Assembly: GCA_030679995.1 (NCBI GenBank)
Contig: JAUXSK010000009.1
Span: 1-52,560, forward strand
Reading direction: 5' to 3'
Source of the DNA: Candidatus Moraniibacteriota bacterium
GTDB lineage: Bacteria > Patescibacteriota > Minisyncoccia > Moranbacterales > UBA2206
Length of the DNA stretch: 52,560 nt
A model generated the notes under the pieces. It saw only the letters and a list, made by a program, of their open reading frames with translations. It made no database searches and was not told where the DNA came from. How positions within the stretch are numbered: the stretch's first letter is position 1; each line of letters begins with the position of its first letter. Made by a program: the position numbers and the translations under genes. Positions 9,356 through 40,444 of the stretch are shown here, piece by piece.

Positions 9356-9408
9356 CGATAATTTTATGAATTTGACCGGTGGTCGCGGCAGAATCATCCG
9401 CCGCAGGT

Positions 9409-9437
9409 TTGATTAGCTGGCCGTTTTTTGGTATGAT
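9409..9437 (+). promoter_or_regulatory. Predicted promoter
   Basis: TTGATT, 17-nt spacer, TATGAT, with an extended -10 TG at 9429-9430. Confidence 0.4.
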
Positions 9438-9475
9438 TCAATCAAGAAATTAAAAAGCTATATCGCTGGCGAACT

Positions 9476-11383
9476 ATGTCTCTTTCAGAAATAAAAAACA
9501 AGCTATATAAAAAAGATCCGGATAAGAATCTGATGCTTCACGATGAAAGCGAGTTCGATGCGAGGAATAAGAATGTAGCTCCAGGCAAGACTGGTGCGGA
9601 TATGGAAGATATTTGGCGGCGGCAGGCTCCGATTCCGCTTGAAAAGAAAAAAAACGTTTTGAAAATAGGTGGAATCATTCTAGGTGCAGTGGTCGTTATC
9701 ATCTTGTCGATGGTAGCGGTCTATCAGATACGCAAGGCTTCATTCGGCGAGGACCGGGTCACGGTCACTGTTGACGGTCCGAAAGAAACAAGAAGCGGGA
9801 AATTGCTGACATACGAAATAACATATAACAATAATAATTGGGCGTCATTGGATGACGCGGTGCTTAGGATAAGCCACCCGGAAAGTTTCAAGCCCGAAGA
9901 AAGCGCGGTCTATAAAACGGAAAGCCCGACGGTCAGTCTGGTCGAGCTGGGAAAATTGGACGGGCATGCGGCCGGCAAAATCGTTTTCAGCGGTCGGGCC
10001 TATAGTCCCAAGGGAACTTTGATGTACATAAAATCCGCTTTGTCATATAAGCCGTCCAATTTCAATAGCCAATTTGTAGCGGAGGGGCAAATCGGAGTCA
10101 ATGTGATTTCTACGCCTATGACATTGGAAATTATGGCTCCGCAAGGTATGGCGAGCGGAGATGCCCTGGATTACCAAGTGAGTTATAAAAACGTAGGCGC
10201 CGAAGATTTCGAAAATATCCGGATCAAAGTCGATTTTCCGGAGGGCTTCATTTTTTCCAAATCCGACCCGTCGGTTTCGGAAGGGAACAATATCTGGTAT
10301 ATCGGACATCTTTCCGCCGGAGACGCCGGGAAAATCGTAATCAGCGGTAAGCTGCAAGGCGAGCGGGATAATATCAAAAAAGTCGCAGTTTATATCGGTA
10401 CTATCAACCAAGGGCAATTTGTCACTTATAATGAGGAATCGACAACTACCAAGATCGCCGCATCGCCTTTGGTGATTTATCAAACAGTCAACGGGTCGAC
10501 GAATTTTTTCGCCAATGCGGGGGACACCCTCAGGTTTGAAATACATTATAAAAATGCGAGCGATCTCGGTCTGGGCAATGTCAATATTAAAGAAACCTTG
10601 AATAGTCCGGTTTTGGATTATTCGACTCTGGAAACGGATGGCGGAGCCTATGATACCGATAACCGGACGATCGAATGGAAGGCTGCGGATCATCCCGCGC
10701 TGGCCAATTTGGCCCCCGGACAGGAGGGTACGATCGCTTTTTCGGTCGATGTCAGCAACACTATTCCGTTGCAAACCGTAAACGATAAGAATTTTGTGAT
10801 TTCAAGCGTCGTGCGGATCGACAGTCCGGACATTCCTACTCCGATCGAGATGAATAAGATCGTAGCCGGCAATAAGATGGATATAAAATTGAATTCTAAA
10901 TTGACTGTCGATGTCAAAGGCTATTATAACGATCCTTTCATCTCCAACGCTGGTCCGATTCCGCCGGCTGTCGGGCAGGAAACGACCTATACGATCCATT
11001 TGAGAGCTGGTAACGTTTCCAACGATGTGACGGATGCCAAGATCGAAACTGTCTTGCCGACAGGCGTCGTAATGACAGGCAAGACATATCCGGAAGGCGC
11101 CAATCTTGAATATAATGGACGGACGAATTCGATAGTCTGGAATATCGGTACGATGAAAGTCGGGGAGGGTATCATAAGCCCTTTGCGGGAAGTGGCCTTC
11201 CAAGTGAAGATCAAACCATCGCCCAATCAGGCGGGTCAGATGGTGGATATTTTGCAATCTGGGATATTTTCGGCCAAAGACTCATTCACGCAGGAAAATT
11301 TGACCGCGCAATTCAAGAGTAAAAACACGATGTTGCAAGAGGACCAGTCCATTGACGCTAGCGGATGGAAAGTAGTACAATAG
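9476..11383 (+). CDS. Membrane-anchored surface protein with repeated DUF11/CARDB-like Ig-fold domains
   Basis: 635 aa. There is an N-terminal TM helix (GGIILGAVVVIILSMVAVY), then repeated ~110-aa beta-rich modules of the form (...Y.ITY.N.G...L.NV.I...P...). Confidence 0.7.
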   Translation: MSLSEIKNKLYKKDPDKNLMLHDESEFDARNKNVAPGKTGADMEDIWRRQAPIPLEKKKNVLKIGGIILGAVVVIILSMVAVYQIRKASFGEDRVTVTVDGPKETRSGKLLTYEITYNNNNWASLDDAVLRISHPESFKPEESAVYKTESPTVSLVELGKLDGHAAGKIVFSGRAYSPKGTLMYIKSALSYKPSNFNSQFVAEGQIGVNVISTPMTLEIMAPQGMASGDALDYQVSYKNVGAEDFENIRIKVDFPEGFIFSKSDPSVSEGNNIWYIGHLSAGDAGKIVISGKLQGERDNIKKVAVYIGTINQGQFVTYNEESTTTKIAASPLVIYQTVNGSTNFFANAGDTLRFEIHYKNASDLGLGNVNIKETLNSPVLDYSTLETDGGAYDTDNRTIEWKAADHPALANLAPGQEGTIAFSVDVSNTIPLQTVNDKNFVISSVVRIDSPDIPTPIEMNKIVAGNKMDIKLNSKLTVDVKGYYNDPFISNAGPIPPAVGQETTYTIHLRAGNVSNDVTDAKIETVLPTGVVMTGKTYPEGANLEYNGRTNSIVWNIGTMKVGEGIISPLREVAFQVKIKPSPNQAGQMVDILQSGIFSAKDSFTQENLTAQFKSKNTMLQEDQSIDASGWKVVQ

Positions 11384-23532: not shown

Positions 23533-23787
23533 ATGCATAGGCGCATTAAAAGTAAAATAATGGATAGAGAAATTGGAAAAGATGATAGCTTCTCCGCTTG
23601 GTCATTTGCCTGGGAATTAGGGTATTCGATCGCCGTGCCGCTAGCGGCATTGGCTTTTGCTGGAAGATTTCTGGATAAGAAACTGGGAACATCGCCGTTT
23701 TTACTGCTTGCCTGTATCCTCGTTTCAATCGCCATTTCGGCATATATAGTCTACAAAAAAACAACCGATATAATGAACAGAAAATAA
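23533..23787 (+). CDS. AtpZ/AtpI-like small membrane protein of the ATP synthase operon
   Basis: 84 aa with two TM helices (G..IAVPL..LAFAGRFLDKKLGTSP). The TAATG junction overlaps the start of atpB. Confidence 0.55.
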   Translation: MHRRIKSKIMDREIGKDDSFSAWSFAWELGYSIAVPLAALAFAGRFLDKKLGTSPFLLLACILVSIAISAYIVYKKTTDIMNRK

Positions 23788-24539
23788 TGGAAATTTCACT
23801 CGCACCAGAAATAATATTCCATATCGGATCTTTTCCGGTTACCAACTCGCTCTTGATGACGCTTATTTTAAGCGCGATTATTATCCTGACCTCCCTCAAT
23901 CTCCGAAACAAGCTGAAGCTTGTGCCCAAAGGCTTCCAAAACATATTCGAATATGTTATGGAAGCTTTTTTGGATCTGATCGACAGCGTTACGCAGAACC
24001 GCGAGCAGACCCGCAAATTCTTTCCGCTGGTGGTGACTATTTTCCTGTTCGTGATACTTTCCAATTGGATCGAACTTGTTCCCGGATTGGGAACTATCGG
24101 CATCAATGAAACGCATCATGGCAAGACGATCCTAGTCCCTTTCATCAGGAGCGCTTCGGCTGATTTGAATATGACATTGGCGATCGCGCTTATCTCGGTT
24201 TTCACGATCCAATTTATGGGCATCGCCGCTATCGGAGCGGCCAGATATGCGGGTAAGTTTTTCGTGAATCCTTTGCGCAAACCCTATTTTATCGGAACTT
24301 TCGTGGGAATTTTGGAACTGATCAGTGAGGTCGCTAAAATAATCTCTTTTTCCTTCCGTCTTTTCGGGAATATTTTTGCCGGCGAAGTGCTTCTGATCGT
24401 TATGTTGAATTTGGTCCCATATTTCGTGCCGCTGCCTTTTTTGTTCCTGGAATTGTTTGTCGGATTCGTACAGGCGCTGGTTTTCGCGATGTTGACGCTG
24501 GTATTTTTAAAGATGGCGGTGACGGCGCATGAACATTAA
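23787..24539 (+). CDS. atpB: F0F1 ATP synthase subunit a
   Basis: Contains FSFRLFGNIFAGEVLL, which includes the essential Arg. Confidence 0.92.
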   Translation: MEISLAPEIIFHIGSFPVTNSLLMTLILSAIIILTSLNLRNKLKLVPKGFQNIFEYVMEAFLDLIDSVTQNREQTRKFFPLVVTIFLFVILSNWIELVPGLGTIGINETHHGKTILVPFIRSASADLNMTLAIALISVFTIQFMGIAAIGAARYAGKFFVNPLRKPYFIGTFVGILELISEVAKIISFSFRLFGNIFAGEVLLIVMLNLVPYFVPLPFLFLELFVGFVQALVFAMLTLVFLKMAVTAHEH

Positions 24540-24587
24540 TGCGTGATTGCTGGACGGCTATATCGCTGAATCATTGGAATGATTTAA

Positions 24588-24914
<327 letters not shown>

Positions 24915-25002
24915 TCAGCGGACAGGGAGCAATGAACAGCGAACATATTTCCTGTTCATTGATCTTTGCACATTGGTTATCGTAAAAATTAACTACAAAA
25001 AA

Positions 25003-25488
25003 ATGGAATTATTGGATAATTTGGGAATCGATGGAAGGTTGTTGCTGGCACAGCTCATCAACTTCGTAATCCTGCTGGCCGTGCTGTATAAATTCGCTTA
25101 CGGTCCGGTTTTGAAAATTTTGGAAGAGCGGACGAAAAAAATCGAGAATGGTCTGAAAGATGCCGAAGAATCCCACAAGAAATTGGCTGAAATTTCTGAA
25201 AAGGAGGCGGCGGTCTTGGTGGAGGCTAGGAAAAATGCCCAGCAAATAATTAAAAAATCGGAAGAAGCTGCCGTCAAGAATGCGGAAGAAATCATAGTGT
25301 TGGCTAAGGACCAATCAATCAAGATGCTGGAGCAAGCCAAAAAGCAGATTGAGCAGGAAAAGGAGAAGATCTTGGCAGAAGTGAAAACTGAAGTGGCCGA
25401 ATTGATAATGGTCGCGACCGGGAAGATTATCGATGAGAAATTGGATAGTGAAAAAGATCGTGATTTAATCAATCGAAGTATAAAATAA
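25003..25488 (+). CDS. atpF: F0F1 ATP synthase subunit b
   Basis: The ATG is at MELLDNLGIDG. One N-terminal TM helix is followed by a long charged helix. The TTG at 24973 is less likely to be the start. Confidence 0.85.
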   Translation: MELLDNLGIDGRLLLAQLINFVILLAVLYKFAYGPVLKILEERTKKIENGLKDAEESHKKLAEISEKEAAVLVEARKNAQQIIKKSEEAAVKNAEEIIVLAKDQSIKMLEQAKKQIEQEKEKILAEVKTEVAELIMVATGKIIDEKLDSEKDRDLINRSIK

Positions 25489-25889
25489 TGCGCTTGTCAG
25501 TCAATCAGTATGCGAAAGCCTTGTACGCTTCAGTCAAGGACAAATCCCAAGGCGATATCGGCTTGGTGGTGGCGAATTTGCTGAATCTTTTGCGAAAAAA
25601 TGGACAGATGAAATCAGCTGGGAAAATCATCGATAATTTCTCAGTCATTTGGAATAAGGAAAACGGGATCGTCGAAGCGGAAATAACCAGTCGGGAGGCG
25701 CTGGATAAAGCGTCGCAAGACGGAATCAAGGAATTCATAGCCGGAAAATATGCGGCCAAGGAGGTGATAGTCAGCAATATTGTCGATGAGGATATCCGAG
25801 GCGGAATAATAATCAGGATCGGGGACGAATTGATAGACGCTAGCGTGCGGAGAAGATTGACTGACCTGGGTAAAAGTTTGGGAGCTTAA
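25488..25889 (+). CDS. atpH: F0F1 ATP synthase subunit delta (short)
   Basis: 133 aa. The C-terminus has the OSCP signature GGIIIRIGDELIDASVRRRL. Confidence 0.8.
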   Translation: MRLSVNQYAKALYASVKDKSQGDIGLVVANLLNLLRKNGQMKSAGKIIDNFSVIWNKENGIVEAEITSREALDKASQDGIKEFIAGKYAAKEVIVSNIVDEDIRGGIIIRIGDELIDASVRRRLTDLGKSLGA

Positions 25890-25949
25890 GAATTTCCAGC
25901 AATCAAATCATCTGTTAAGTCATTATTTTAAAATAATTTAAATAAATTT

Positions 25950-27461
25950 ATGAATACGAAGGATTATATCGTCGATCAGCTGAAAAAACAATTGGAAAAT
26001 TTTGAAACTGCGACACAGACTGAGAAAATCGGGACGGTAGTGGAGGTCGGGGATGGCGTGGCGAAAATTTCCGGGTTGTCCGATGCGATGGCCAGTGAAA
26101 TGTTGGATTTCGGCAACGGGATTTTCGGTGTGGCTCTCAATCTAGAGGAAGGCGCCGTGGGTGCGATGATTCTGGGATCTTATGAAGGTATCAAGGAAGG
26201 GGATATCGTCAAATCGACCGGCAAAATCTTGTCGGTGCCGGTGGGCGATATGATGATCGGGCGGGTAGTGAGCCCGTTAGGAGAGGCGATTGATGGCAAA
26301 GGCGAAATAAAATCCGAAACGTATTATCCGGTGGAAAAAATCGCGCCGGGAGTTATAACCAGAAAATCGGTAAGCGTACCGGTGCAAACCGGTATTAAAG
26401 CGATTGACGCGGTTATTCCGGTCGGACGCGGCCAGCGGGAGCTTATTATCGGGGACAGACAGACTGGTAAAACAGCGGTGGCGGTCGATGCGATTATCAA
26501 TCAGAAGGGACAAGATTTGATTTGTATTTATGTGGCTATCGGTCAAAAGGAATCCAAGATCGCGAGGATCGTGGCGGAGCTGGAAAAACGCGGGGCGATG
26601 GAACATACGATTATGGTCGTGGCCGGCGCCTCTGATCCAGCGGCGCTATCATTCATCTCTCCATATGCCGGTTGCGCGATGGGGGAATATTTTTTAGACA
26701 AAGGCAAGGATGTTTTGATAATCTATGATGATCTGAGCAAACACGCTTGGGCCTATCGCCAAATTTCCTTGATTTTGCGCCGGCCACCGGGACGCGAAGC
26801 TTATCCGGGGGATATTTTTTATCTGCATTCAAGACTTCTGGAAAGATCGGCGCGCCTGAATGAAGATTTTGGCGGCGGCTCAATTACGGCTTTGCCGATC
26901 ATTGAAACGCAAGCGGGCGATGTTTCAGCTTATATCCCGACCAATGTCATTTCCATTACGGATGGCCAGATATATTTGGAAACAGATCTTTTCTATAAAG
27001 GCATCCGCCCGGCGCTGAATGTCGGTTTGTCCGTTTCCCGCGTAGGTTCCGCGGCGCAGACCAAGGCGATGAAAAAAGTGGCTGGAAAGTTGCGGCTTGA
27101 TCTGGCGCAGTTCCGTGAGTTGGAAGCGTTCGCGCAATTTGGATCGGATTTGGATGAAAATACCCGCCGCCAAATCGAGCGTGGAAGAAGGACGGTTGAA
27201 ATTTTGAAACAGGACCAATATGAGCCGATGGCGATGCAAAACCAAGTCGCTATCCTCTATGCCTTGACCAATGGATTTTTGGATGATGTAGCGGTGGAAA
27301 AAGTGAAATTTTGGGAAAATGATTTCCATAAGTATCTGAAATCCAATTCGAAAGAGATGTTGGAAATGATCGCGGAAAAGAAAGAGTTGAACGAGGAAGT
27401 GGTGGCGGCTTTGGAAAAAGCGATCAAGGAATTCAAGGAAATTTATCAGAACGGGAATTAA
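25950..27461 (+). CDS. atpA: F0F1 ATP synthase subunit alpha
   Basis: Walker A GDRQTGKT. Strong full-length alpha-subunit similarity. Confidence 0.97.
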
Positions 27462-27574
27462 CAATTTTAAATTATAAATTTGAAATTTTAAATCAATATT
27501 TAATTTCCAAATGAATAAATTTTTACTCATTCAGAATTCATTTTAAATTTAAAATTGAAAATTTAAAATTAATC
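27461..27574 (+). repeat. AT-rich intergenic element, copy 1 (atpA-atpG spacer)
   Basis: 114 nt. The first ~53 nt differ at 4 positions from 30132 onward. The last 38 nt (27537-27574) are identical to 30216-30253. Termini are aattttaaatt / aaatttaaaatt. Confidence 0.9.
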
Positions 27575-27578
27575 AGTT

Positions 27579-28532
27579 ATGGCATCAACACGCGACATCA
27601 GACGACGCATAAAATCCGTCGGCAATACCCAAAAAATAACCCGAGCGATGGAGATGGTTTCGGCTGCCAAGATGAGGAAATCGGTAGCGAGCGTTTTGGC
27701 GATCCGGCCGTATGCCCATGCCGCTTGGAGCGTCCTGACTAATTTGTCGCGGGCTTTTGCGGAATATAGGTCGGGGCTTTTGGAAGTGCGCAAAGTGAGA
27801 CGGGTCCTGGCTATCGCCATAACGTCGAACAAAGGTTTATGCGGGGCTTTCAACGCGCAACTTTCCAAGAAAATACGTGAAGAAATAGCCCATCCGGAAA
27901 ATTTGATGATCAATAGGATCGGAGATGAAAAAATCATATCCAAAGCTGAGGAAATTGAGATTGATTTTGTTACGATCGGCAAGAAAGGCGAGAATACGGT
28001 GCGCAAAGCCGGAAAAAATATCATAGCTTCTTTCAACGACCTGACGTATTTGCCTAAAATTGACGATGTGCGTATCGTAAGTAAAGTGGTGATGGATGAC
28101 TACTTGGCTAAAAAATATGACAAGGTGGTTATTTTTTATACTGATTATGTTTCGGCGATGAACCAGCAGACGAAAGTCCGCCAGCTTTTGCCAATTTCGA
28201 AGATAGACTTGGAAAAACAAATCGCTGCAATGGATGTTCTGGCGAAAGAATATGGACTGGACGAACCTGTGCGGGAATATAAGGTTGAGCCGGCTCCGGA
28301 AACCGTTTTGGAATATGTTTTGCCACGGTTGATCGAAATGCAGATTTATCATGCGATTTTGGAATCCAATGCTTCCAAGGAATCGGCGCGGATGATGGCG
28401 ATGCGCGGAGCGACGGAAGCTGCCGGAGAGATGCGGGATGATCTGACATTTGCCTATAATCAGATCCGCCAGATGAAGATTACGCAAGAAATAGCGGAGA
28501 TTTCAGCTGGACGGGCGGCGCTGGAAAGTTAA
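27579..28532 (+). CDS. atpG: F0F1 ATP synthase subunit gamma
   Basis: N-terminus RDIRRRIKSVGNTQKITRAMEMVSAAK and C-terminus ITQEIAEISAG. Confidence 0.93.
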   Translation: MASTRDIRRRIKSVGNTQKITRAMEMVSAAKMRKSVASVLAIRPYAHAAWSVLTNLSRAFAEYRSGLLEVRKVRRVLAIAITSNKGLCGAFNAQLSKKIREEIAHPENLMINRIGDEKIISKAEEIEIDFVTIGKKGENTVRKAGKNIIASFNDLTYLPKIDDVRIVSKVVMDDYLAKKYDKVVIFYTDYVSAMNQQTKVRQLLPISKIDLEKQIAAMDVLAKEYGLDEPVREYKVEPAPETVLEYVLPRLIEMQIYHAILESNASKESARMMAMRGATEAAGEMRDDLTFAYNQIRQMKITQEIAEISAGRAALES

Positions 28533-28727
28533 ATTATAAATATGCCCAAGGCGGGAAGGAATTGCACAAGATATGGATGCGGGAACGAAGCAGGCGCTCC
28601 CAATGTCGGGAAAGAAAAATTTAGGAGCGGAAACTTTAAATAATCAAAAGCATAGATCGCAGCAAATATCGGTTTTATCGCATTGGTAGCGGATGTTCGT
28701 GCAATAATTTTTTTAAATAATTTTTAG

Positions 28728-30116
<1,389 letters not shown>

Positions 30117-30131
30117 AACATTTTTTATTTC

Positions 30132-30253
30132 ACAATTTTAAATTAAAAATTTGAAATTTTAAATAAATATTTAATTCCTAAATGTTTAAATGATTAAAAA
30201 TTTATTCATTGGGATTTCATTTTAAATTTAAAATTGAAAATTTAAAATTAATC
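30132..30253 (+). repeat. AT-rich intergenic element, copy 2 (atpD-atpC spacer)
   Basis: 122 nt, homologous to 27461-27574 and ending 2 nt before the atpC ATG. Confidence 0.9.
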
Positions 30254-30255
30254 TT

Positions 30256-30693
30256 ATGGGTTCACGAATAAAATTTAAGATTGTCACTCCCGAAAAAACC
30301 GTTTTTGAAGCGGAGGTTTTCCAGGCGACTTTGCCGGTGACGGACGGGGAAGTCACTATCCTGCCTAATCATAGATCATATATCGCTTCGCTTAAGGCCG
30401 GGGAAGTCTGCTTGAAGTCTGATGCGGGAGATGTTTGTTTGGCTGTTTCGGGCGGATTTATCGAATTCAACCAGAATAATCTGGTGGTTTTGGCTGATAC
30501 GGCTGAACGGGCTGAAGAGATCGATTTGGCGCGAGCTGAGGAAGCGAGAATACGGGCGGAAGAGTTAAAGAAAGAAAAAATCGAAATGGATGATAGTGAA
30601 TATGCGCGCGTGGCGGCGGCCGTCGAAAAAGAGATGACTAGGATAAGGGTCGCTAAAAAACATCGCACGGTAACTGGTATGCATCTTGACTAA
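30256..30693 (+). CDS. atpC: F0F1 ATP synthase subunit epsilon
   Basis: 145 aa. The N-terminal beta-sandwich (KFKIVTPEK...) and the C-terminal helical hairpin are present. Confidence 0.9.
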   Translation: MGSRIKFKIVTPEKTVFEAEVFQATLPVTDGEVTILPNHRSYIASLKAGEVCLKSDAGDVCLAVSGGFIEFNQNNLVVLADTAERAEEIDLARAEEARIRAEELKKEKIEMDDSEYARVAAAVEKEMTRIRVAKKHRTVTGMHLD

Positions 30694-30720: not shown

Positions 30721-31254
30721 ATGGCTTTTATTAAATTATTAAAAATATTATTTTTTGGTCCGAAGGTCACTGAATCGGAATCCGGATTGTCTGGACCCAA
30801 GGATCAAGAAATTCAAAATATCGGTGAAGAAATAAAGAAAGAGGTAGAACGTCTTTACGGCGGGCGTTCTTTACGTATCCGCGCCGTGGATGGCGGATCA
30901 ACCAATGCTGAGGAGATCGAACTGACCGCTTTGCTTAATGCCTACTATGATATCGACAGGTTTGGTTTGAGTTTTGTAGCTTCGCCACGTCATGCCGATA
31001 TGCTGTTCGTAACCGGACCGGTCACGAGAAACCTTGAGGCGGCAGTCAAGAAAACTTATCAGGCAGCCCCGGAGCCTTGCATCGTAGTTGCGATCGGGGA
31101 CGGAGCCTGTACGGGCGGCATCTGGAATGATTCGTACGCGGTAGTCGGATCTGTAGATAAAGTTATCCCGGTACATATCCGGATTCCAGGCGATCCGCCA
31201 ACCCCGACAGAAATCTTAAAGGGGGTGCTTGGCGCGCTTCGCGGTAAAAAATAA
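30721..31254 (+). CDS. NuoB/HycG/HyfI-like small subunit, degenerate (Fe-S ligands mostly lost)
   Basis: Contains FVASPRHADMLFVTGPVT, GDGACTGG and IPGDPPTP. Family similarity is clear, but the Cys ligands are replaced (see findings). Confidence 0.85.
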   Translation: MAFIKLLKILFFGPKVTESESGLSGPKDQEIQNIGEEIKKEVERLYGGRSLRIRAVDGGSTNAEEIELTALLNAYYDIDRFGLSFVASPRHADMLFVTGPVTRNLEAAVKKTYQAAPEPCIVVAIGDGACTGGIWNDSYAVVGSVDKVIPVHIRIPGDPPTPTEILKGVLGALRGKK

Positions 31255-31265
31255 ATAGCAATACG

Positions 31266-33260
31266 ATGGAAAACTTTATTATTTATGGGGTTTATATTTA
31301 TTTGACTGGAATGCTGGTTTCGGCGGGTATGTCCCTTCTTAGGAATCATTTCCGTTTCGCAAACGCAATTCTGTTTTTATCCAATTTGGCCGGATTTTCA
31401 GCTATGGTCGCATATCTGGCGAATTTTCCCGGCAGGGAATTGGTGATTTTGCAGACTGGATTTTTTTTCGACTTGAAACTGTCGTTGGATTACCTGTCTT
31501 CGATTTTTTTACTTCTGACTAGCGGAATTTCCGGGCTAGTTGTCGTTTATAGCGCGGAATACCTCGATCGTTATCGGAAAACATATGATATCCAAAGCGT
31601 CCAATCGCTTATGGGAATTTTTATTTTTGGAATGGTCGGCGTCCTTTTGTCTGCCAATGTCGTCGGATTTATGGTTTTTTGGGAAATTATGTCGTTCGCT
31701 TCTTTTTTTCTGGTGATGTCCGATCGGACAAAAGAATCATTGCATGCCGCCTTTATTTATTTTGTGATGACCCACTTGGGGGCAGGAGCGATTTTAGGCG
31801 GATTTTTGATTTTAAGCGGAGGTTCGCTGGGTTTTGAAATCAGCGGAATCGCCGCCGCTTCGCGAAACATCCCGCCTGATTTTCTTACGGTAGCGTTCTT
31901 GCTGTTCTTTTTTGGGTTTGGATCCAAAGCGGGCCTTATCCCGTTCCATATCTGGCTGCCGGAAGCTCATCCGCAGGCACCGACGAATATTTCCGCCCTG
32001 ATGTCCGGATTGATGTTAAAAATAGCGGTGTATGGTTTTTTGAAAACCGTTATGATGTTTTTCCATATCCCGATCTGGGCGGCTTTGCTGGTAATATCGC
32101 TGGGAATCATTTCAGCGTTACTAGGTGCGTTGTATGCGGTCGTGGAGAAAGATATTAAAAAGGCTTTCGCTTATTCCAGTATTGAAAATATGGGTATTAT
32201 TTTTTTGATGCTAGGTATGGCGATGTGCGTTATGGCCAAAAGGACGGCTGGGGAAATCCCTTTGGCAGCTATCCTGCTTGTCACTTATGCGATTTTTCAC
32301 GCGATCAACCACGCCATATTCAAGACAGGCCTGTTTTTATCCAGCGGGGTCATTATTAATAGGACGCATTCCAAAAGTTTGGATATGATGGGCGGTCTTG
32401 CCAAGGCGATGCCGATCTTCTCCTTCATTTTCTTGATTATCATATTAGCTTCAGCTGCATTGCCTCCGTTCGGAACTTTTTATGGGGAATGGGGCTTTAT
32501 CCGGGCGCTTATTGATTTGTTGCAAATTTCCGGAACGAAATTCGCATCCGTTACCGTCTTCTTGACCGTCTTGGCGTTATTCGCCCTTGTGAGCGGACTG
32601 GCTACTTTCGCGATGATAAAAATCTATGCCATTTCTATGCTTGGCCTTCCGAAACTGGAAAGGCATTCCGACGAAAAGACAGACGACGGATTGTTCGTTA
32701 TTCCTTTGGCGGTTATCGGTTTTGTGATGGTCGCTCTGGGAATTTTCGCGAAAAATATCTTAGGCTGGCTTTCTGGCCATATCGGGGAAGTATTTTTCGG
32801 ATATGCGGGGGATATTCCGGATGTCCAAATATCATCAGCGCAGGTCTTTGTCATAGTTGCCGCTTTCCTGCTCTTATCCGCGGCCGTATATAAACTCCTA
32901 TCCGGCAATGGAAGAAAGGAACGGGAATATGATACTTGGAATTGCGGACAACCGATCGACGCCAGTATGGAATATACGGCAACCGCTTTCTCCGCCCCGA
33001 TACGGTTTTTCTTTCTGCCTCTTTTGCAGCGCAGAAAAACCATCATATCCGTACCGGTCGTAAATACGAATCCTTGGATCTCAAAGAAATCTTTTTCTTT
33101 AGACATCACTTCCGTTTGGTATGACAGGCTATATAAGCCGGCGGCAAAATATGTCTTCTGGCTGGCTGAAAAAGTGAGATTGGTCCATACTGGACGGATC
33201 CAATATTATCTATTGCTATTGCTTTCCGCCATAATTATCACATTAATGATAGCCCTATGA
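31266..33260 (+). CDS. HyfB/HycC/NuoL-like antiporter-type membrane subunit
   Basis: 664 aa. Contains WEIMS and GFGSKAGLIPFHIWLPEAHPQAPTNISALMSG, the Proton_antipo_M core. Confidence 0.85.
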   Translation: MENFIIYGVYIYLTGMLVSAGMSLLRNHFRFANAILFLSNLAGFSAMVAYLANFPGRELVILQTGFFFDLKLSLDYLSSIFLLLTSGISGLVVVYSAEYLDRYRKTYDIQSVQSLMGIFIFGMVGVLLSANVVGFMVFWEIMSFASFFLVMSDRTKESLHAAFIYFVMTHLGAGAILGGFLILSGGSLGFEISGIAAASRNIPPDFLTVAFLLFFFGFGSKAGLIPFHIWLPEAHPQAPTNISALMSGLMLKIAVYGFLKTVMMFFHIPIWAALLVISLGIISALLGALYAVVEKDIKKAFAYSSIENMGIIFLMLGMAMCVMAKRTAGEIPLAAILLVTYAIFHAINHAIFKTGLFLSSGVIINRTHSKSLDMMGGLAKAMPIFSFIFLIIILASAALPPFGTFYGEWGFIRALIDLLQISGTKFASVTVFLTVLALFALVSGLATFAMIKIYAISMLGLPKLERHSDEKTDDGLFVIPLAVIGFVMVALGIFAKNILGWLSGHIGEVFFGYAGDIPDVQISSAQVFVIVAAFLLLSAAVYKLLSGNGRKEREYDTWNCGQPIDASMEYTATAFSAPIRFFFLPLLQRRKTIISVPVVNTNPWISKKSFSLDITSVWYDRLYKPAAKYVFWLAEKVRLVHTGRIQYYLLLLLSAIIITLMIAL

Positions 33261-34849
33261 TGCAGATAACAAATATTATCATCCAATTTATTTTCGTTGC
33301 CGCGGTGGCGCCGTTCGCGGCTGGGTTCGTGCGTCTGGTAAAAGCCAGATTGCAAGGAAGAAAAGGAGCTTCGCCATTTTTGGAATACGCGGCTTTGGCG
33401 ACGTTATTGAAAAAGGAAATGGTCATTCCAAGTGCCAGCTCCTGGGTGTTCCGCCTGGTTCCGTTCGTCGTATTGGCTAGCTCGCTTTGCTTCGCGTTTC
33501 TGGTCCCGACAATTTTCCATCTCGGCAGCCTGGCGGGGATGAGTGATTTTTTGGTAATCGCGGGGATTCTGATGACTGGATCGGTTTTCTTGGTGTTAGG
33601 TGGTCTTGATCCGGGCAGCGCATTTGGCGGAATGGGGGCGAGCCGCGAAATGACCATCGCCGCTTTGCTTGAGCCGACGATGATTATGGTTTTCGCCGCA
33701 TTCGGATTCGTAACGAATTCATTTACGATCGACGGGATGATGGTCGAAGGCATCATTATGACTAACCCCTTCCTGCTTCTGTCCGTGGTCGGACTGGTTA
33801 TGCTGGCCTTAGGAGAGAACGCGCGTTATCCAGTGGATAATCCGGCGACCCATCTCGAATTGACTATGGTGCATGAAGCGATGATCCTTGAATATTCCGG
33901 TCCGTACCTGGCGATGTTGGAATATGCTTCAGCGATCAAATTGACAGTCTTCGCTTTCCTGGTCAGCAATCTGATTTTTCCTGGATCATTGCAAATTGCC
34001 GGAGCGGGAATTCCCGCTGTTATATCTGGTTTGTTATTGGCCGTGTTAAAAATCACGATCGTGATGGCTCTCTTGGCCCTGCTTGAATCGACGATTGTCA
34101 AGATGCGTTTCTATCGGATGCAGGAATATGTGTCAGTTTCTTTTTTCGCCGCTTTTTTCGGTATGGCGGCGGCCGTCCTGTCCCAGCAGGTCGATTTTCT
34201 AGTCAATTATACCGTTTTTTTCGTATCCCTCACAATCTTATTTACCGTTTTCGTTTTTGGAAACCTGAGGATTACGCCCGTTTTGCGTTATTATGTCTTT
34301 TCTTCTCTGGCCATTGCCGGCATTGCGGCTTCATTGGGATTTTCTGATATCGGGGAGGCAAAGCATATGTTTTTCTTCGCGCTGGTGACTGTGTTAGTGA
34401 AAGCCGTTTGCGTGCCGCTGGTCATTATGTATGCGGTCAACCGCTATGAGAAAATCAATCAATTCCAGACATTTTTACGGCCGGCTTCCAGTTATTTATT
34501 ATCCGGCGTGATCATCGCGATCGCATTTTTCGTAACAAGCCGGATTTCCTTGATCGAGGGGCCGGTCTGGCCGGGAATCTTGTTCGCGTCTATCGCGCTT
34601 ATAATGCTGGGCATTATGAAAATGGTCATTATGCGTAATATCTATTCTCAGATAATCGGACTTTTGGTTTTGGAAAACGGGCTGGCCTTATTCACTTTAG
34701 TCACCGTCAAGACGCTGCCTGTCGTAATCGAATTGGGGATTTTCGCGATTACGCTGGCCAGCGTGTTTATTTTGGCGAAATTAAGTACTAACATCAAGGA
34801 GTTGTATGGTTCGACGGATACCGAAGAACTGCGCAATTTAGTCGACTAA
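33257..34849 (+). CDS. Fusion of a HycD/HyfC (NuoH-like) subunit and a HyfE-like subunit
   Basis: The N-terminal ~310 aa carry ENARYPVDNPATHLELTMVHEAMILEYSG (HycD signature). The C-terminal ~215 aa carry GLLVLENGLALF ... ELYGSTDTEELRNL (HyfE-like). The ATGA junction overlaps the upstream gene. Confidence 0.8.
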   Translation: MMQITNIIIQFIFVAAVAPFAAGFVRLVKARLQGRKGASPFLEYAALATLLKKEMVIPSASSWVFRLVPFVVLASSLCFAFLVPTIFHLGSLAGMSDFLVIAGILMTGSVFLVLGGLDPGSAFGGMGASREMTIAALLEPTMIMVFAAFGFVTNSFTIDGMMVEGIIMTNPFLLLSVVGLVMLALGENARYPVDNPATHLELTMVHEAMILEYSGPYLAMLEYASAIKLTVFAFLVSNLIFPGSLQIAGAGIPAVISGLLLAVLKITIVMALLALLESTIVKMRFYRMQEYVSVSFFAAFFGMAAAVLSQQVDFLVNYTVFFVSLTILFTVFVFGNLRITPVLRYYVFSSLAIAGIAASLGFSDIGEAKHMFFFALVTVLVKAVCVPLVIMYAVNRYEKINQFQTFLRPASSYLLSGVIIAIAFFVTSRISLIEGPVWPGILFASIALIMLGIMKMVIMRNIYSQIIGLLVLENGLALFTLVTVKTLPVVIELGIFAITLASVFILAKLSTNIKELYGSTDTEELRNLVD

Positions 34850-34853
34850 TCAT

Positions 34854-36308
34854 ATGATGGCGATAATCATAACAATTTTTCTATTTGGCGCGCTGTTGCC
34901 GCAATTTTTAAAAGACGAAAAGCACATCCGCCGGGGCGCCGTTTGGGCGGCGTCCGCTGGGGGATTGGCGGTCTCCGTTTTTGCTTTGCCGGTGCTTTTC
35001 GGGAAAGAACCGTCTTGGTCCGATAGTTGGTGGATGATCGATCCTTTCTCGGCATTGATGGCATCCCTGATAGTTTTCACCTATATGGCGGCGATAGTCG
35101 TAAGTTATCGGTATATCGGGCATGAATACCAAGATGGGATAGTGGGCGTTTCCCAAGTCAGGATGTATTTTTCCCTGATCAGTTTATTCGAGCTTTCAAT
35201 GTTAGCCGTAGTTTTTGCTGATAACGCGATGTTGATGTGGTTGTCGCTTGAAGGTACGACGCTCTTCTCGGCTTTCCTAGTCGGATTATATAAGAAGAAG
35301 ACCTCCGTCGAAGCGGCTTGGAAATATGTCATACTTTGTTCGACGGGCATCACGCTGGGACTTGCCGGCGTGTTATTGATGAATTACGCAGGTGATTCGC
35401 TTAATTTGGATGATAATTTTTTCTCGTTGCTGTTTCTAACTGAGAATGCCCATCTTCTTCCTCCGGAAATTATCAAGTGGGCTTTTGTGTTCCTATTTGT
35501 GGGTTTCGGCACCAAGGTCGGTTTGGTTCCGATGCACGCTTGGCTGCCGGATGCGCACAGCAAGGCGCCATCGCCGATTTCAGCCCTGTTTTCAGGAGTG
35601 TTATTGAATGTCGCCCTTTATGTCATTATTCGGTTCAAACATATCGCGGACAGCGCGCTGGGCGGTTCGGAGTGGACGAATGGGTTCTTCTTGGTCTTTG
35701 GTTTGCTATCGATCGCTTTGCCGGCTTTGGCGTTGCTTATCCAGGATAATTACAAGCGTATGCTGGCCTATTCCAGTATCGAACATATGGGATTGATGTC
35801 TTTGGCGATCGCTTTTTCCCCATTAGGTCTGGTAGCTGCGTTCATCCATATGATCGGGCATACGTTTACCAAGTCGGCTTTGTTTTTCGGAGCCGGCGAA
35901 TTTTTACTTAAATGGAAAACCACCAAAATCAGCAAAATCGGTTCCACGATTAACCATGCCCCGTATACCAGCGTGCTTTTTTTAGTCGGAATTTTGGCGA
36001 TTATCGCCGCTCCTCCGTCAGTGATTTTTTTTAGCGAATTCATTCTTTTCTCCCGGATGTTTTCCACACATTGGATTTTGGCGATCTGCACTTTGATCGC
36101 TATGAGTCTCGTCGCATTTTCAATGCTGCATCTGGCAATCAGGCTGGTTTTTGAAGGGGAGAGCGAGGAAAAAATGGAGAAAGAAAAATGGAACAGCACC
36201 CATACTGTCATATCGATCGAGTTGGTCTTGGCATTCGGACTGTCTTTCGTCCTGATTTCCCCGCCAGGCCTTGCCTTTATCGAGTCGCTGGTTAAAATCG
36301 TCAATTAA
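34854..36308 (+). CDS. HyfF/NuoM-N-like antiporter-type membrane subunit
   Basis: 484 aa. Contains GFGTKVGLVPMHAWLPDAHSKAPSPISALFSG. Confidence 0.85.
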   Translation: MMAIIITIFLFGALLPQFLKDEKHIRRGAVWAASAGGLAVSVFALPVLFGKEPSWSDSWWMIDPFSALMASLIVFTYMAAIVVSYRYIGHEYQDGIVGVSQVRMYFSLISLFELSMLAVVFADNAMLMWLSLEGTTLFSAFLVGLYKKKTSVEAAWKYVILCSTGITLGLAGVLLMNYAGDSLNLDDNFFSLLFLTENAHLLPPEIIKWAFVFLFVGFGTKVGLVPMHAWLPDAHSKAPSPISALFSGVLLNVALYVIIRFKHIADSALGGSEWTNGFFLVFGLLSIALPALALLIQDNYKRMLAYSSIEHMGLMSLAIAFSPLGLVAAFIHMIGHTFTKSALFFGAGEFLLKWKTTKISKIGSTINHAPYTSVLFLVGILAIIAAPPSVIFFSEFILFSRMFSTHWILAICTLIAMSLVAFSMLHLAIRLVFEGESEEKMEKEKWNSTHTVISIELVLAFGLSFVLISPPGLAFIESLVKIVN

Positions 36309-36319
36309 ATTATATTCGT

Positions 36320-37879
36320 ATGAAAACAATCGAAATAATCGCCCGGTTTCCCAATTTGAAATTATCAAAGAATGCTGGCGGCATCATCGAAGCTTCCGCT
36401 GATCGCGATGATATCGCCGCCATCGCCACCGCGCTTGTGCAGGATCACAAGTTGCCATTGTCGCTGATGTTCGGAACCGATGACCGGGAAGAAAAAAAAT
36501 CCTTCGGCGTGCATACGGTTTTTTCCAATGATGCGGAACATGAGCGATTGGTCGTTTCGATCGAAGTGCCGGAGCAGGACGCGCAATATCCTTCGATTAC
36601 CGCTACGGTTATGGCGGCGCATTGGTATGAAAGATATCTGCGCGATATGTTCGGTATCGAACCGAAAGGCCATCCTGATTTGCGAAGGCTGGTACATCAT
36701 GAAAATGTTCCGGAGAATATATTCCCTTTGCGCAAAGATTTTGCCTGGAACGCGAAAATGGAATATGCGAATGTCGCGTATCCGATGCATCATGTCGCGG
36801 GAGAGGGGATATATGAAATCCCAGTCGGGCCGATCCATGCCGGCATTATCGAGCCTGGCCATTTCCGCTTCAATGTGGCCGGGGAGCGGATAATCACTTT
36901 GGAGGGGAAGCTGTTTTTTACGCATAAGGGGGTGGAGAAAATACTGGAAGGCAAAACCGTGGTTGAGGCGCTGCCTTTTATCGAACGGATTTCCGGCGAT
37001 ATGTCGTCCGCGCATGCCTTGGCGTTCGCCCAGTCGATCGAGGTTATTTCCGGATGTGAAATTCCGAGGCGGGCGAAAATGTTACGGACTTTGCTGCTTG
37101 AGTTGGAAAGAATGACGATGCATGTGCATGATTTGGGGAATATCGGCGGGATGGGGACGGGTTATAGTTTCATAGCGGCTAATTGTTTCAGGATCAAGGA
37201 ACGTCTGATGCGGCTCTCTGAAAAAATGACGGGAAACCGTTTTTGGCGGGGCGTAATCGTTCCAGGAGGGGTAGATAAGGACTTTGCTGCGGATGAATTG
37301 ATACACACCTGGTCGGTAGTAAAAAACGCCTATCAGGAAACGATGGAAATTATAAATACGGCTCTGGGGTCGGAAGGTTTTTTGGAACGTCTGCAAACGA
37401 CAGGCGTCTTGCCCAAGGAAGCGGCGGAGGCTTTCGGCGCGGTCGGCGTCGCAGCGCGCGCATCCGGAATTGATCGGGATGCGCGGCGGGATTATCCGTA
37501 CGCGGCTTATGCCGAATTCCCGGTGCCAGTCGTTATTGAATCGACGGGCGATGTGTATGCCAGATACAAAGTTCGAATCGAGGAATTAAAACAGTCTGTC
37601 GCTTTGGTTGAAAAGATAATTTCAAACTTGGAAGAAGGGGCGATTATGGTTGGATATGCGGTCAAAGACGGTTTTGGGCTGGGCTCGGTAGAATCATGGC
37701 GGGGAGAAATCTTATGCGCGGTCAGAATCAAAGATGGAAAGATAGACAGATGCTTCCCGCGTGATCCGTCTTTTTGCAATTGGGCGCTGTTCGGCATAAT
37801 CGGACCGGGCAATATCGTGCCGGATTTCCCGCTTTGCAATAAGTCGCTCAATCTGAGTTATTCAGGAACTGATCTGTAA
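36320..37879 (+). CDS. HycE/HyfG-like large subunit (NuoC-NuoD fusion) lacking Ni-Fe cysteines
   Basis: The NuoC-like part has HWYERYLRDMFGIEPKGHPDLRRL. The NuoD/large-subunit part has GPIHAGIIEPGHFRF...THKGVEK. The L1 and L2 Cys motifs are replaced (see findings). Confidence 0.85.
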   Translation: MKTIEIIARFPNLKLSKNAGGIIEASADRDDIAAIATALVQDHKLPLSLMFGTDDREEKKSFGVHTVFSNDAEHERLVVSIEVPEQDAQYPSITATVMAAHWYERYLRDMFGIEPKGHPDLRRLVHHENVPENIFPLRKDFAWNAKMEYANVAYPMHHVAGEGIYEIPVGPIHAGIIEPGHFRFNVAGERIITLEGKLFFTHKGVEKILEGKTVVEALPFIERISGDMSSAHALAFAQSIEVISGCEIPRRAKMLRTLLLELERMTMHVHDLGNIGGMGTGYSFIAANCFRIKERLMRLSEKMTGNRFWRGVIVPGGVDKDFAADELIHTWSVVKNAYQETMEIINTALGSEGFLERLQTTGVLPKEAAEAFGAVGVAARASGIDRDARRDYPYAAYAEFPVPVVIESTGDVYARYKVRIEELKQSVALVEKIISNLEEGAIMVGYAVKDGFGLGSVESWRGEILCAVRIKDGKIDRCFPRDPSFCNWALFGIIGPGNIVPDFPLCNKSLNLSYSGTDL

Positions 37880-37969: not shown

Positions 37970-38523
37970 ATGTTTAATGCGGTTTTAACGTTAGAGGAAT
38001 ACAGATTGAAAAGCCGATTAAAAAAATAGGTATCCTCCGCAGGTTTAAAAACGGAGAGCTTAAGGGCTTAACCAATAATGGCGGCGTGGCTATCGTGTGT
38101 GGAGACGGTGATATCGATGTTATGGTCCATCATATGCGGGAAATAAGCCACCGTCCGCATTGTAAGTCTGATTTTGGCGGAGTATTACAACTCATTCAGA
38201 GTTTCAGGGGTTTTGATTGGTGATATGCCGCTTGTATGGCAGAAAATATAAAATTCGGTTTTTTCGCAAAGCGAACCAAAACCGTTTTTGCTTATTTTCA
38301 CTATCCTTGCGGAGCTGCTATCCATTATAAACATTCCTTCACGGATATCCTAAAAATAATGGCAGATTCTCCGGAAGTTCTTAAATTGTTGTACAATTTC
38401 GAGAAAATCTACGTCTTTTTATATGTAAGGCGTCTCAATAAAAATAATGAGGAAAGGCAGAATACATATCTTGTAGAAGCGGATATGTTGAAAAAAATCA
38501 TTCAAGACGGAAGATCGGGCTAG
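37970..38523 (+). pseudogene. Disrupted ORF: 19-codon ORF, then a -1 frame segment, then an in-frame TGA, then a 95-aa ORF. Product unknown.
   Basis: SD ggaggtg lies before the ATG at 37970, and this ORF stops at 38027-38029, directly after a run of 7 A. The -1 frame is open from 37978 to the TGA at 38221-38223. ORF 38236-38523 lies in that same frame. Confidence 0.3.
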
Positions 38524-38535
38524 ATTTAAGTGTAA

Positions 38536-38568
38536 AAAGGGAACTCATCGAGTTCCCTTTATTTTTTT
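38536..38568 (+). terminator. Intrinsic terminator
   Basis: Perfect stem aaagggaactc / gagttcccttt with loop atc, followed by attttttt. Confidence 0.85.
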
Positions 38569-39631: not shown

Positions 39632-40444
39632 ATGTCAGAAGAAAGATTTTATTCCCCGGATATAATAAAAAAAAATAAGAAGACGCGGGAGAGGGTCGAT
39701 AATCTTCGGAAATCGGACAGTATCGATGATGATTCCGTGTATGATTTGGCGAAAGCGGAGAATAAGTTCAGGGAGGAATATAAGCGGGATGGATTGCTGG
39801 AAGATTGTCTTGAAAAGTATGCCGATAAATTCACTACCCTTAATTTGGAAAAATTTGAAGCGCAAAAATCGAATTGGATCGACGGCTTGACCGGTCTTAG
39901 GAATAAAAAGGCGCTTTATGGGGAAATGCCATGTCTTCTGGGTTTGGCAAAGCGCAATAATCACGATTGCTCGGTCCTTATGATAGATATGGATTTTTTT
40001 AAGCGGGTTAATGATGAATATGGACATTTGGCCGGGGATCAGACGCTTAAAATAGTGGCGGATATCATCCGGAACTCAGTCCGGGAGTCGGATTTGTTAT
40101 ACCGTTTCGGCGGAGAGGAATTCGTAGTTGCGCTTTATGACACTGATAGTCGACTATCCCAAACGATTGCGGAAAAAATCAGGAAAAATGTTGAGAAATC
40201 CGGCATTGTCGTGCTCGATGATCAGGACAACCAGCAAGCGTTTAAAAAAACCGTAAGCATCGGTTGTGTCGGAACGGATCAACTTAAGACCTGGGAATCC
40301 ACTATGGAAGATAATATTGACGATATTTTGGAGGATTTGATCCAAAAAGCTGACATTTCTTTATACCGAGCTAAAAATACCGGCAGAAATAAGGCGGTCG
40401 TGTATGAACCCAATAATGATAAGATAATTTTTGAGAAAGTTTGA
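39632..40444 (+). CDS. GGDEF-domain diguanylate cyclase
   Basis: Contains DGLTGLRNKKAL, DMDFFKRVNDEYGHLAGDQ and RFGGEEFVV (active-site GGEEF). Confidence 0.88.
   Translation: MSEERFYSPDIIKKNKKTRERVDNLRKSDSIDDDSVYDLAKAENKFREEYKRDGLLEDCLEKYADKFTTLNLEKFEAQKSNWIDGLTGLRNKKALYGEMPCLLGLAKRNNHDCSVLMIDMDFFKRVNDEYGHLAGDQTLKIVADIIRNSVRESDLLYRFGGEEFVVALYDTDSRLSQTIAEKIRKNVEKSGIVVLDDQDNQQAFKKTVSIGCVGTDQLKTWESTMEDNIDDILEDLIQKADISLYRAKNTGRNKAVVYEPNNDKIIFEKV

Follow-up and report, generated by a model that had tools for sequence, protein, structure and literature searches.

A stretch of 52,560 nucleotides from contig JAUXSK010000009.1 of Candidatus Moraniibacteriota bacterium (assembly GCA_030679995.1), an ultra-small bacterium of the Patescibacteria, hereafter called the window, carries five tightly packed genes on the forward strand (positions 30721-37879) for an energy-converting hydrogenase related (Ehr) complex. 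The small-subunit gene comes first (ehrS; 30721-31254, ATG to TAA) and encodes a 177-residue homologue of NuoB, HycG and MbhJ in which none of the four [4Fe-4S] ligand positions is a cysteine; all four NiFe-binding cysteines of the large subunit are replaced as well. Judging from these sequences, it is very probable that the small subunit binds no [4Fe-4S] cluster and that the complex is redox-inert. The explanation that we favour, with some reserve, is that the complex is still at work as an ion translocator linked to the proton-motive force, with its two peripheral subunits as a redox-dead cap.

Ehr complexes as such, and a clade of them specific to the Candidate Phyla Radiation (CPR) with a large subunit lacking the NiFe site, are already known. 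Jaffe et al. 2020 reported that CPR Ehr large subunits form a monophyletic clade in which the metal-binding cysteines are missing and inferred that the CPR Ehr 'likely cannot interact with H2'; their CPR alignment (Fig. S6b) shows the large subunit only, in its L1/L2 regions (PMC7304191). In the literature that we searched, which did not include Marreiros 2013, we found no account of a full loss of the small-subunit cluster in Ehr complexes or in CPR bacteria, and neither the linkage of ehr with atp genes nor that with carbonic anhydrase genes is described there.

The small subunit and its former cluster pocket

That the open reading frame (ORF) at 30721-31254 encodes a member of the NuoB/HycG family, as the original prediction had proposed, is borne out by its profile match, which lies above the curated threshold, and by its flavodoxin-like NuoB fold. 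Residues 64-170 match the Pfam profile Oxidored_q6 (PF01058) with an E-value of 3.5e-23 (82.2 bits, cut-off 27). The closest solved relatives found with phmmer are HycG of E. coli (7z0s_G, E 2.4e-29) and MbhJ of P. furiosus (6cfw_J, E 1.8e-28), and the match to NDUFS7/NuoB of complex I has an E-value of ~1e-23. An AlphaFold2 model of the single chain (predicted local distance difference test [pLDDT] 83.8, predicted template-modelling [TM] score 0.76) superposes in Foldseek on MbhJ 6cfw_J with a TM score of 0.85 and a root-mean-square deviation of 2.2 Å over 135 columns, and it matches HycG with an E-value of 1.6e-14; since the model superposes on MbhJ, the NuoB/HycG fold has been kept. Every sequence string quoted as a family landmark is present, including SPRHADMLFVTGPVT (residues 88-102), GDGACTGG (residues 126-133) and PGDPP (residues 156-160).

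The protein falls in the length class of HycG and MbhJ and, like them, has an amphipathic helix at its N-terminus, the coupling loop SPRHAD and the motif PGxPP. The coupling loop G82-D93, GLSFVASPRHAD, is intact and invariant, and it aligns with HycG residues 69-80, the 'NDUFS7 loop', which is one of four loops building the coupling interface in formate hydrogenlyase and in complex I (PMC9474812). With NuoB, NDUFS7 and Nqo6 of complex I the small subunit has the Pfam family, the fold and the position at the junction of peripheral and membrane arm in common, but it lacks the N2 cluster.

HycG binds the proximal [4Fe-4S] cluster, termed G1, the counterpart of N2 in complex I (PMC9474812). The register of the corresponding ligand columns was read from three kinds of alignment: ungapped phmmer alignments with HycG, MbhJ and human NDUFS7; a MAFFT alignment of 150 representatives of 50%-identity clusters; and an alignment of 84 genomic loci. 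Residues 56-67, VDGGSTNAEEIE, align without gaps with VDCGGCNGCEIE of HycG and VNSGSCNGCDIE of MbhJ, and the CxxC pair therefore sits at T61 and E64. The third ligand, the Cys of G-A-C in HycG and MbhJ and of G-S-C in NDUFS7, falls on G128 in all three kinds of alignment, and the canonical PGCPP is aligned to PGDPP with D158 in the fourth column. Where HycG has its proximal cluster ligands, the protein from the window thus has T, E, G and D, and the four cysteines of Fe-S-carrying NuoB/HycG proteins (CxxC or CC, G-x-C, G-C-P-P) are all missing from their columns.

The original prediction was right about the Cys-free N-terminal segment and about the change from PGCPP to PGDPP; it erred in counting the Cys of GDGACTGG as a retained cluster ligand. 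This residue, Cys130, lies two positions past the third ligand column, at a site that in 40% of the canonical members is occupied by a further Cys, one that is not a ligand. Because the third ligand column is G128 and not C130, the count of ligand cysteines is none of four rather than one of four. As a candidate for a surviving ligand Cys130 was rejected: it is off-register by two in every alignment, 14 of the 120 closest homologues have Ile in its place, and it is missing in sister clades. The only other Cys of the protein is C120, and the small subunits of two sister CPR loci (L012 and L020) have no Cys at all. The earlier statement that an N2-type cluster could not be ligated in the usual way hence stands and was, if anything, too cautious, since no ligand column holds Cys. 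Four Cys, or Cys/Asp/His substitutes, at these positions would have spoken against it; the columns instead read T, E, G and D, a combination not known to bind a cubane cluster.

A search of 5.8 billion proteins yielded 3,435 relatives of the small subunit at E<=1e-5, the best 120 of which (71-84% identical) were used for counts per column. All named members of this set belong to the Patescibacteria/CPR (Patescibacteria, Uhrbacteria, Moranbacteria, Falkowbacteria, Parcubacteria) and represent several CPR classes. Among them, position 61 is T in 103, S in 13, N in three and A in one; E64 and G128 are found in 120 of 120; and position 158 is D in 112 and N in eight. As the substitutions are fixed in these closest homologues, neither chance nor sequencing error accounts for the loss of the ligands. 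When set against 87 canonical representatives with four ligand cysteines (CCCC), E64, G128, D158, C120, H152 and W135 are residues fixed specifically in the clade of the window. The residues that are invariant in the family as a whole are kept around the pocket (R54, D57, G59, S60, N62, E65, E67, D77, R80, G82 and S88-D93). This clade has Cys without exception in place of the canonical K/R at position 120, and a conserved His in place of the canonical D at position 152.

Large subunit, membrane arm and affiliation of the complex

The Ehr large subunit (36320-37879, forward strand; 519 residues) combines NuoC- and NuoD-like parts and is HycE-like; it matches the Pfam families Complex1_49kDa, Complex1_30kDa and NiFeSe_Hases and aligns with HycE (7z0s_E) at an E-value of 5.7e-75. 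Its two NiFe motifs read RISGDMSSAH and NLSYSGTD, where HycE has RVCGICGFAH and DPCYSCTD, so that all four NiFe cysteines are replaced. None of the six Cys that the protein does contain stands at a ligand position, and C506, the sole one compared across relatives, is not conserved. The small subunit thus belongs to a complex whose large subunit has lost its NiFe site, which explains the loss of its cluster.

A ferredoxin-like partner of the NuoI/HycF type was looked for by scanning for its Cys motif, and the scan gave none in the CPR clusters: no open frame of at least 60 residues in the 52.5-kb window has a C..C..C...C motif, and no ORF with C..C..C...CP was found in the CPR loci among the 84 scanned. 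Redox partners encoded nearby were likewise sought among 20 flanking ORFs annotated with Pfam; these encode aminoacyl-tRNA synthetases, TGT, peptidases, Nramp, CofD, a GGDEF protein and similar functions, and none of the 20 is a dehydrogenase or a ferredoxin. Genes for formate dehydrogenase, NuoEF or ferredoxin are also absent from the annotated parts of the CPR neighbourhoods, in which some flanking ORFs were left unannotated. Because the small-subunit cluster is gone and NuoI is missing, no known redox site is left in the Ehr complex of the window.

The three remaining genes, all on the forward strand, encode the membrane arm. The first (31266-33260) specifies a NuoL/HycC/MrpA-like antiporter-like subunit of 664 residues (Pfam Proton_antipo_M, E 1.8e-52) that matches HycC (E 6.5e-52), MbhH (E 6.4e-44) and, as third best, MrpA (7qru_A, E 3.3e-43) among the structures of the PDB. 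It is followed by a fusion of a NuoH/HycD-like protein with a NuoK/HyfE-like C-terminal domain (33257-34849, 530 residues; NADHdh, E 4.8e-27; Oxidored_q2, E 1.8e-6), which aligns with HycD from the PDB at an E-value of 9.4e-26, and then by a NuoM/N/HyfF-like antiporter-like subunit of 484 residues (34854-36308; Proton_antipo_M, E 1.4e-52). We assessed the conservation of membrane-arm motifs across 17 CPR loci. The NuoL-like subunit keeps the Glu of transmembrane helix 5 (FWEIMS) and the Lys residues of helices 7 (GSKAGL), 8 (LMLKIA) and 12 (AIFKTG), the NuoM/N-like subunit keeps those of helices 5, 7 and 12, and the loops of the NuoH-like subunit keep their motifs (GASREMT, ENARYPVD, HEAMILEYSG) in the CPR loci. 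With its translocation Glu and Lys residues and NuoH-like loops conserved, the membrane arm looks functional. The NuoH- and NuoK-like parts form one fused ORF in the window and in loci L001, L085, L086 and L088, and they are two genes in L003 (12521-14082) and L087 (11544-13144).

The cluster has the features by which Ehr complexes are recognized, namely a large subunit without NiFe cysteines together with NuoB-, NuoC/D- and NuoH-like genes and antiporter-like genes of the NuoL/M/N type. Known Ehr complexes have the same set (NuoB-, NuoCD-, NuoH-, NuoK- and two NuoL/M/N-like subunits), and the NiFe cysteines of L1 and L2 are likewise missing from their large subunit. Within this group, we compared the 80 best loci of our scan (L005-L084; one genome per GTDB species). 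Nearly all of them have a large subunit in the Ehr state (S-x-S-G; the motifs R-x-S-G-D and L-S-Y-S-G are common to them), and most keep a CCCC small subunit, among them those of Bradyrhizobium, Mesorhizobium, Burkholderiales, Methylobacter and Verrucomicrobia. The four small-subunit cysteines are kept in most of the non-CPR Ehr complexes examined (rhizobial hyq-like, Rhodocyclales, Gammaproteobacteria), whereas the window has none of them; in Margulisbacteria NuoB is fused to NuoI, of which the Ehr cluster of the window has no copy. Because most other Ehr complexes retain a CCCC small subunit, the window represents an Ehr subtype that has lost the last redox centre too.

Cluster-less small subunits occur in CPR bacteria in three types, T/S-E-G-D, T-C-D-D and D-C-D-D, and they are found outside the CPR in Methanosarcina, Methanomicrobiales and Dehalococcoidia (D-x-D-N) and in some Chloroflexota (D-A-A-D). 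In a rough neighbour-joining tree of the small subunit, too crude for counting losses, the cluster-less lineages fall in several separate positions. In the loci with D-[TPA]-D-N, which come from Methanosarcina (L009, L013), Methanomicrobiales (L019, L026) and Dehalococcoidia (L021, L025), the small-subunit gene stands last. Three loci labelled Gammaproteobacteria or Bdellovibrionales (L007, L011, L017) contain CPR-type atp/Ehr genes with small subunits 53-68% identical to that of the window; their contigs are probably mis-binned CPR sequences. A further variant was seen in L054 (3401-10402), from a Melainabacteria metagenome-assembled genome, where the large subunit has all four NiFe cysteines (TCGMCSYSH ... 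LCYACVDR) and only one of the four cluster ligands is left in the adjacent small subunit (GSCNAEEAEL, GDGACNGS, PGNPP). Going by these motifs, L054 would combine a hydrogenase-like large subunit with the lack of a proximal cluster, and it is possibly of the group 4f type.

The five Nuo-like genes are not those of a respiratory complex I: NuoA, E, F, G, I and J are absent from the cluster, and its neighbours are atp and housekeeping genes. Nor do they encode a functional group 4 [NiFe]-hydrogenase, since the NiFe site, the proximal cluster and the ferredoxin-like subunit are all missing. The Mrp antiporters (CPA3) operate independently of redox reactions with MrpA/MrpD-type and NuoK-like subunits, and the likeness to them lies in a possible mode of working rather than in membership; they have no NuoH-, NuoB- or NuoD-like subunits, whereas the Ehr cluster has NuoH-, NuoB- and NuoCD-like ones. 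ORFs like MrpB/E/F/G, which Mrp has in addition, were not seen in the Ehr cluster, although no search was aimed at those profiles, and we do not count the complex among the Mrp systems. A resemblance also exists to the inorganic-carbon pumps DabAB/MpsAB and to CupA/B on the cyanobacterial NDH-1MS, in which a PF00361 subunit is associated with a carbonic-anhydrase-like protein; DabAB is energised by an ion gradient and NDH-1MS by proton pumping. In contrast to these systems, the Ehr cluster has no homologue of DabA (PF10070) or of Cup, and the partner gene encodes either a CsoSCA-type protein or a member of a short, divergent family. NDH-1MS moreover keeps its Fe-S clusters, and the association of carbonic anhydrases with Ehr is known from gene neighbourhood alone. 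As DabA was found neither in the window nor in the CPR loci, these complexes are not DabAB-type pumps.

Gene neighbourhood and possible functions

Directly upstream of ehrS and on the same strand lies an F1Fo ATP synthase operon, atpBEFHAGDC (23787-30693), that consists of atpB (23787-24539), atpE for the c subunit (24687-24914), atpF (24973-25488), atpH (25488-25889), atpA (25950-27461), atpG (27579-28532), atpD (28740-30116) and atpC (30256-30693); its AtpA shares 84% and its AtpD 87% identity with the products of the Pfam-annotated genes of L001. The start codon of ehrS follows the stop codon of atpC by 27 nt, and no terminator-like site was seen between the two genes. A strong terminator-like hairpin with an 11-bp stem followed by a T run is present at 38536-38560 of the forward strand and is likely to mark the end of an atp-ehr transcription unit. 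An atp operon precedes the Ehr genes in eight genomes (the window, L001, L003, L005 and L085-L088), sometimes with one or two inserted genes, and it does so as well in L029 and L016, which have the T-C-D-D type. The c subunit contains the stretches GPGIGIG and FTEAIAIY. A Na+-specific ATP synthase was considered and rejected, as this c subunit lacks the Gln and Ser/Thr ligands (the Q...E-S/T set) of Na+-type c rings; because of this lack, the enzyme is assumed to be, and probably is, H+-coupled.

Some of the genes inserted between atpC and ehrS belong to a family of 334-405 residues without a Pfam match (L085 7722-8936 and L088 7986-8987; 41% mutual identity). L088 also has a GGDEF gene at this place (6909-7979), which is 31% identical to that for a GGDEF-domain protein encoded in the window at 39632-40444, 1.7 kb downstream of the Ehr cluster.

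The explanation that we consider best, and to which we give somewhat more credence than doubt, has two parts, namely that the peripheral cap is redox-dead and that the complex still translocates ions in a way linked to the proton-motive force; on the second part we are evenly divided. The NuoB/NuoCD pair would then cap the NuoH-like subunit in a structural and conformational role, and the complex might operate like Mrp or DabAB, moving ions by secondary transport. It may be powered by, or may regulate, the proton-motive force built by the co-transcribed H+-type ATPase in fermentative cells, and its role could be Na+/H+ (pH) homeostasis, in many relatives jointly with a neighbouring beta-carbonic-anhydrase-like protein; where such a partner is present, vectorial CO2 hydration may be possible.

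Several observations weigh against this explanation. In the NuoM/N-like subunit, the Lys of transmembrane helix 8 is replaced by a conserved Asn (VLLNVA), and two of the three Glu residues in the 'AEAEQEL' stretch of HycD are not retained in the NuoH-like subunit. Other CPR Ehr types (L010-L012, L017, L020, L024) have no atp genes within 10 kb. The strict conservation of E64, D127 and D158 could reflect a new ligand or metal site instead of mere pocket filling. Finally, the carbonic-anhydrase-like gene of the window itself is broken, and no other one was found in the 52 kb.

The neighbouring genes suggest a more specific function, in which the Ehr complex would be the membrane module of an energy-coupled carbonic anhydrase, that is, of a vectorial CO2/HCO3- converter resembling DabAB or CupA/NDH-1MS. 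The partner would hydrate CO2, the antiporter-like channels would take the proton away, and the proton-motive force of the ATPase would energise the process. We regard this proposal as possible but rather doubtful; it refines the best explanation and does not replace it. It draws on a gene for a protein of ~360 residues that lies between atpC and ehrS or just 3' of the large-subunit gene in five CPR loci (L005, L015, L085, L086, L087) and that also adjoins the CCCC-type Ehr cluster of the proteobacterial loci L055 and L089. These homologues of the CsoSCA type (~355 residues) are encoded at 16726-17811 in L085, 16331-17407 in L086, 7807-8877 in L087, 18191-19336 in L005, 11147-12355 (reverse strand) in L015, 10045-11121 (reverse strand) in L055 and 10001-11077 in L089. 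The L085 copy passes the Pfam CsoSCA_cat threshold (27.7 bits, cut-off 21.5), and the profile of the family, which has 629 members at E<=1e-5, matches CsoSCA 2fgy (E 2.6e-10) and the beta-carbonic anhydrase 1ddz (E 6.9e-6); C-x-D-G-R, a His and a Cys are invariant in it, so that the Zn-ligand and Asp-Arg motifs are intact. In L090, a CsoSCA-like gene stands beside DabA and four antiporter-like genes. Two of the four non-CPR contexts examined (L091, L092) have no Ehr beside the CsoSCA-like gene, and the association is one of gene neighbourhood only. A SulP/STAS transporter gene follows the Ehr cluster in L089.

A second, shorter CPR family of 27 members is also found next to Ehr genes. C-x-D-G-[DR] and H-x-P-C-G-A-A are its motifs, and the best Foldseek matches of its AlphaFold2 model (pLDDT 89.4) are beta-carbonic anhydrases (probability 0.95-0.97, TM score ~0.4). 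An assignment of this family to the carbonic anhydrases by sequence was tried and failed: hhalign against the CsoSCA-like family gave a probability of 0.2-0.56%, and profile searches of the PDB were empty. The beta-carbonic-anhydrase-like nature of the short family, for which a weak likeness of the modelled fold and the resemblance of the motifs speak, is hence suggestive only. Both families taken together, a carbonic-anhydrase-like gene stands next to Ehr in eight of 11 loci in the clade to which the window belongs, the window itself included. Its copy in the window (37971-38523, forward strand) is related to an intact L001 gene of 185 residues (tblastn, 61% over 168 residues) and is apparently pseudogenised: from the ATG at 37971 it reads MFNAVLTLEEYRLKSRLKK and then runs into a TAG after an A7 run at 38018-38024 (a frameshift), homology resumes in another frame, an in-frame TGA occurs at 38221-38223, and a Tyr stands at the otherwise invariant His (H152 of the L001 protein). 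The disruption of this copy thus speaks against the energy-coupled carbonic anhydrase, as do the failed sequence comparisons of the short family with the long one and with the PDB, its fold TM scores of only ~0.4, and the lack of such a neighbour in the S-E-G-D-type CPR Ehr and in most proteobacterial Ehr loci. The S-E-G-D-type CPR Ehr genes are instead preceded on the same strand by genes for a CPA Na+/H+ exchanger of 700 residues (PF00999, E ~1e-52) and a DedA/VTT protein, which take the place of the atp operon in L011 (7064-9858), L012 (7127-9914) and L017 (4198-6970); in L020, DedA alone is encoded upstream of Ehr on the same strand (9180-9785).

A different fate of the former cluster pocket is conceivable, in which its carboxylate-rich lining (T61, E64, E65, D127, D158) binds another cofactor or a cation such as Mg2+, Ca2+, Na+ or a mononuclear Fe, Mn or Zn, and is functional, be it in sensing ions, in gating or as a new centre of catalysis. 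None of the 120 closest homologues deviates at E64 or D127, all of them have D or N at position 158, and the pockets of cluster-less lineages that appear to be independent are likewise acidic or amide-containing (D-x-D-N, T-C-D-D, D-A-A-D). Yet Gly in the third column and Thr in the first are poor ligands, the residue identities vary between lineages, and the acidic residues could simply replace the bulk and charge of the cluster by means of salt bridges to the large subunit. We therefore consider a new site of this kind improbable.

Far less credible still is an Fe-S cluster held by non-canonical ligands, be it C120 and C130 with Asp, Glu or His, or cysteines of the large subunit. In a few proteins, Fe-S clusters do have Asp or, now and then, Glu or His as ligands, and C120 is invariant in the close clade, where it is paired with the clade-specific H152. 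However, in the secondary structure of the AlphaFold2 model, C120 and H152 each start a beta-strand whose far end bears a former ligand column (G128 and D158, respectively), which places the pair at the opposite end of the sheet, far from the former pocket. The variability of C130, the Cys-free sister CPR subunits and the position of all six large-subunit Cys away from the ligand sites, with C506 not conserved, argue against such a cluster as well, and there would be no electron path to or from it because a ferredoxin subunit is missing. Least probable of all is that the Ehr cluster is what remains of a hydrogenase operon in decay and no longer has a function. In favour of this reading are the loss of every catalytic metal ligand, the reductive nature of CPR genomes and the broken accessory gene of the window, but the five reading frames are intact, relatives are numerous with the closest 120 highly similar, the coupling loops and transmembrane charges are kept, and gene order and atp linkage recur in eight genomes, so that the case for purifying selection on the Ehr genes, as read from these comparisons, is already strong.

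Significance for CPR bacteria and complex I-type machines

Relatives of the small subunit routinely carry the annotation 'formate hydrogenlyase subunit 7' or 'Ni,Fe-hydrogenase III small subunit'. In our view, a hydrogenase-type annotation of these genes is misleading, as it wrongly implies an H2 metabolism in metabolic reconstructions.

Complex I, the membrane-bound hydrogenases and the Mrp antiporters have one ion-translocating engine in common, and it is a long-standing question how chemistry at the NuoB/NuoD/NuoH junction drives it. The CPR Ehr is a widespread natural variant of this engine, known from thousands of sequences, in which the junction, the coupling loops and the membrane charges have been kept and the redox centres shed. 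As the junction is retained while every redox centre is lost, the CPR Ehr separates the conformational machinery from electron transfer.

The variant also bears on how CPR bacteria use their ATP synthase and how, being devoid of electron transport chains, they make or spend a membrane potential. Here, the only complex-I-like genes that they carry stand in one apparent operon with the atp genes, and in relatives they are found beside those for Na+/H+ exchangers, DedA proteins and carbonic-anhydrase homologues. We tentatively suggest, while thinking it rather unlikely in this full form, that the CPR Ehr is a redox-cofactor-free, complex-I-like machine that works together with the F1Fo ATP synthase as a single unit and whose repurposed cap couples the ATP-derived proton-motive force to CO2/HCO3- conversion or to Na+/H+ exchange. 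The cap could do so through a new carboxylate-lined ion site or through a docked beta-carbonic-anhydrase-like partner. If true, this would constitute a third, non-redox way to drive the conformational engine of complex I and Mrp.

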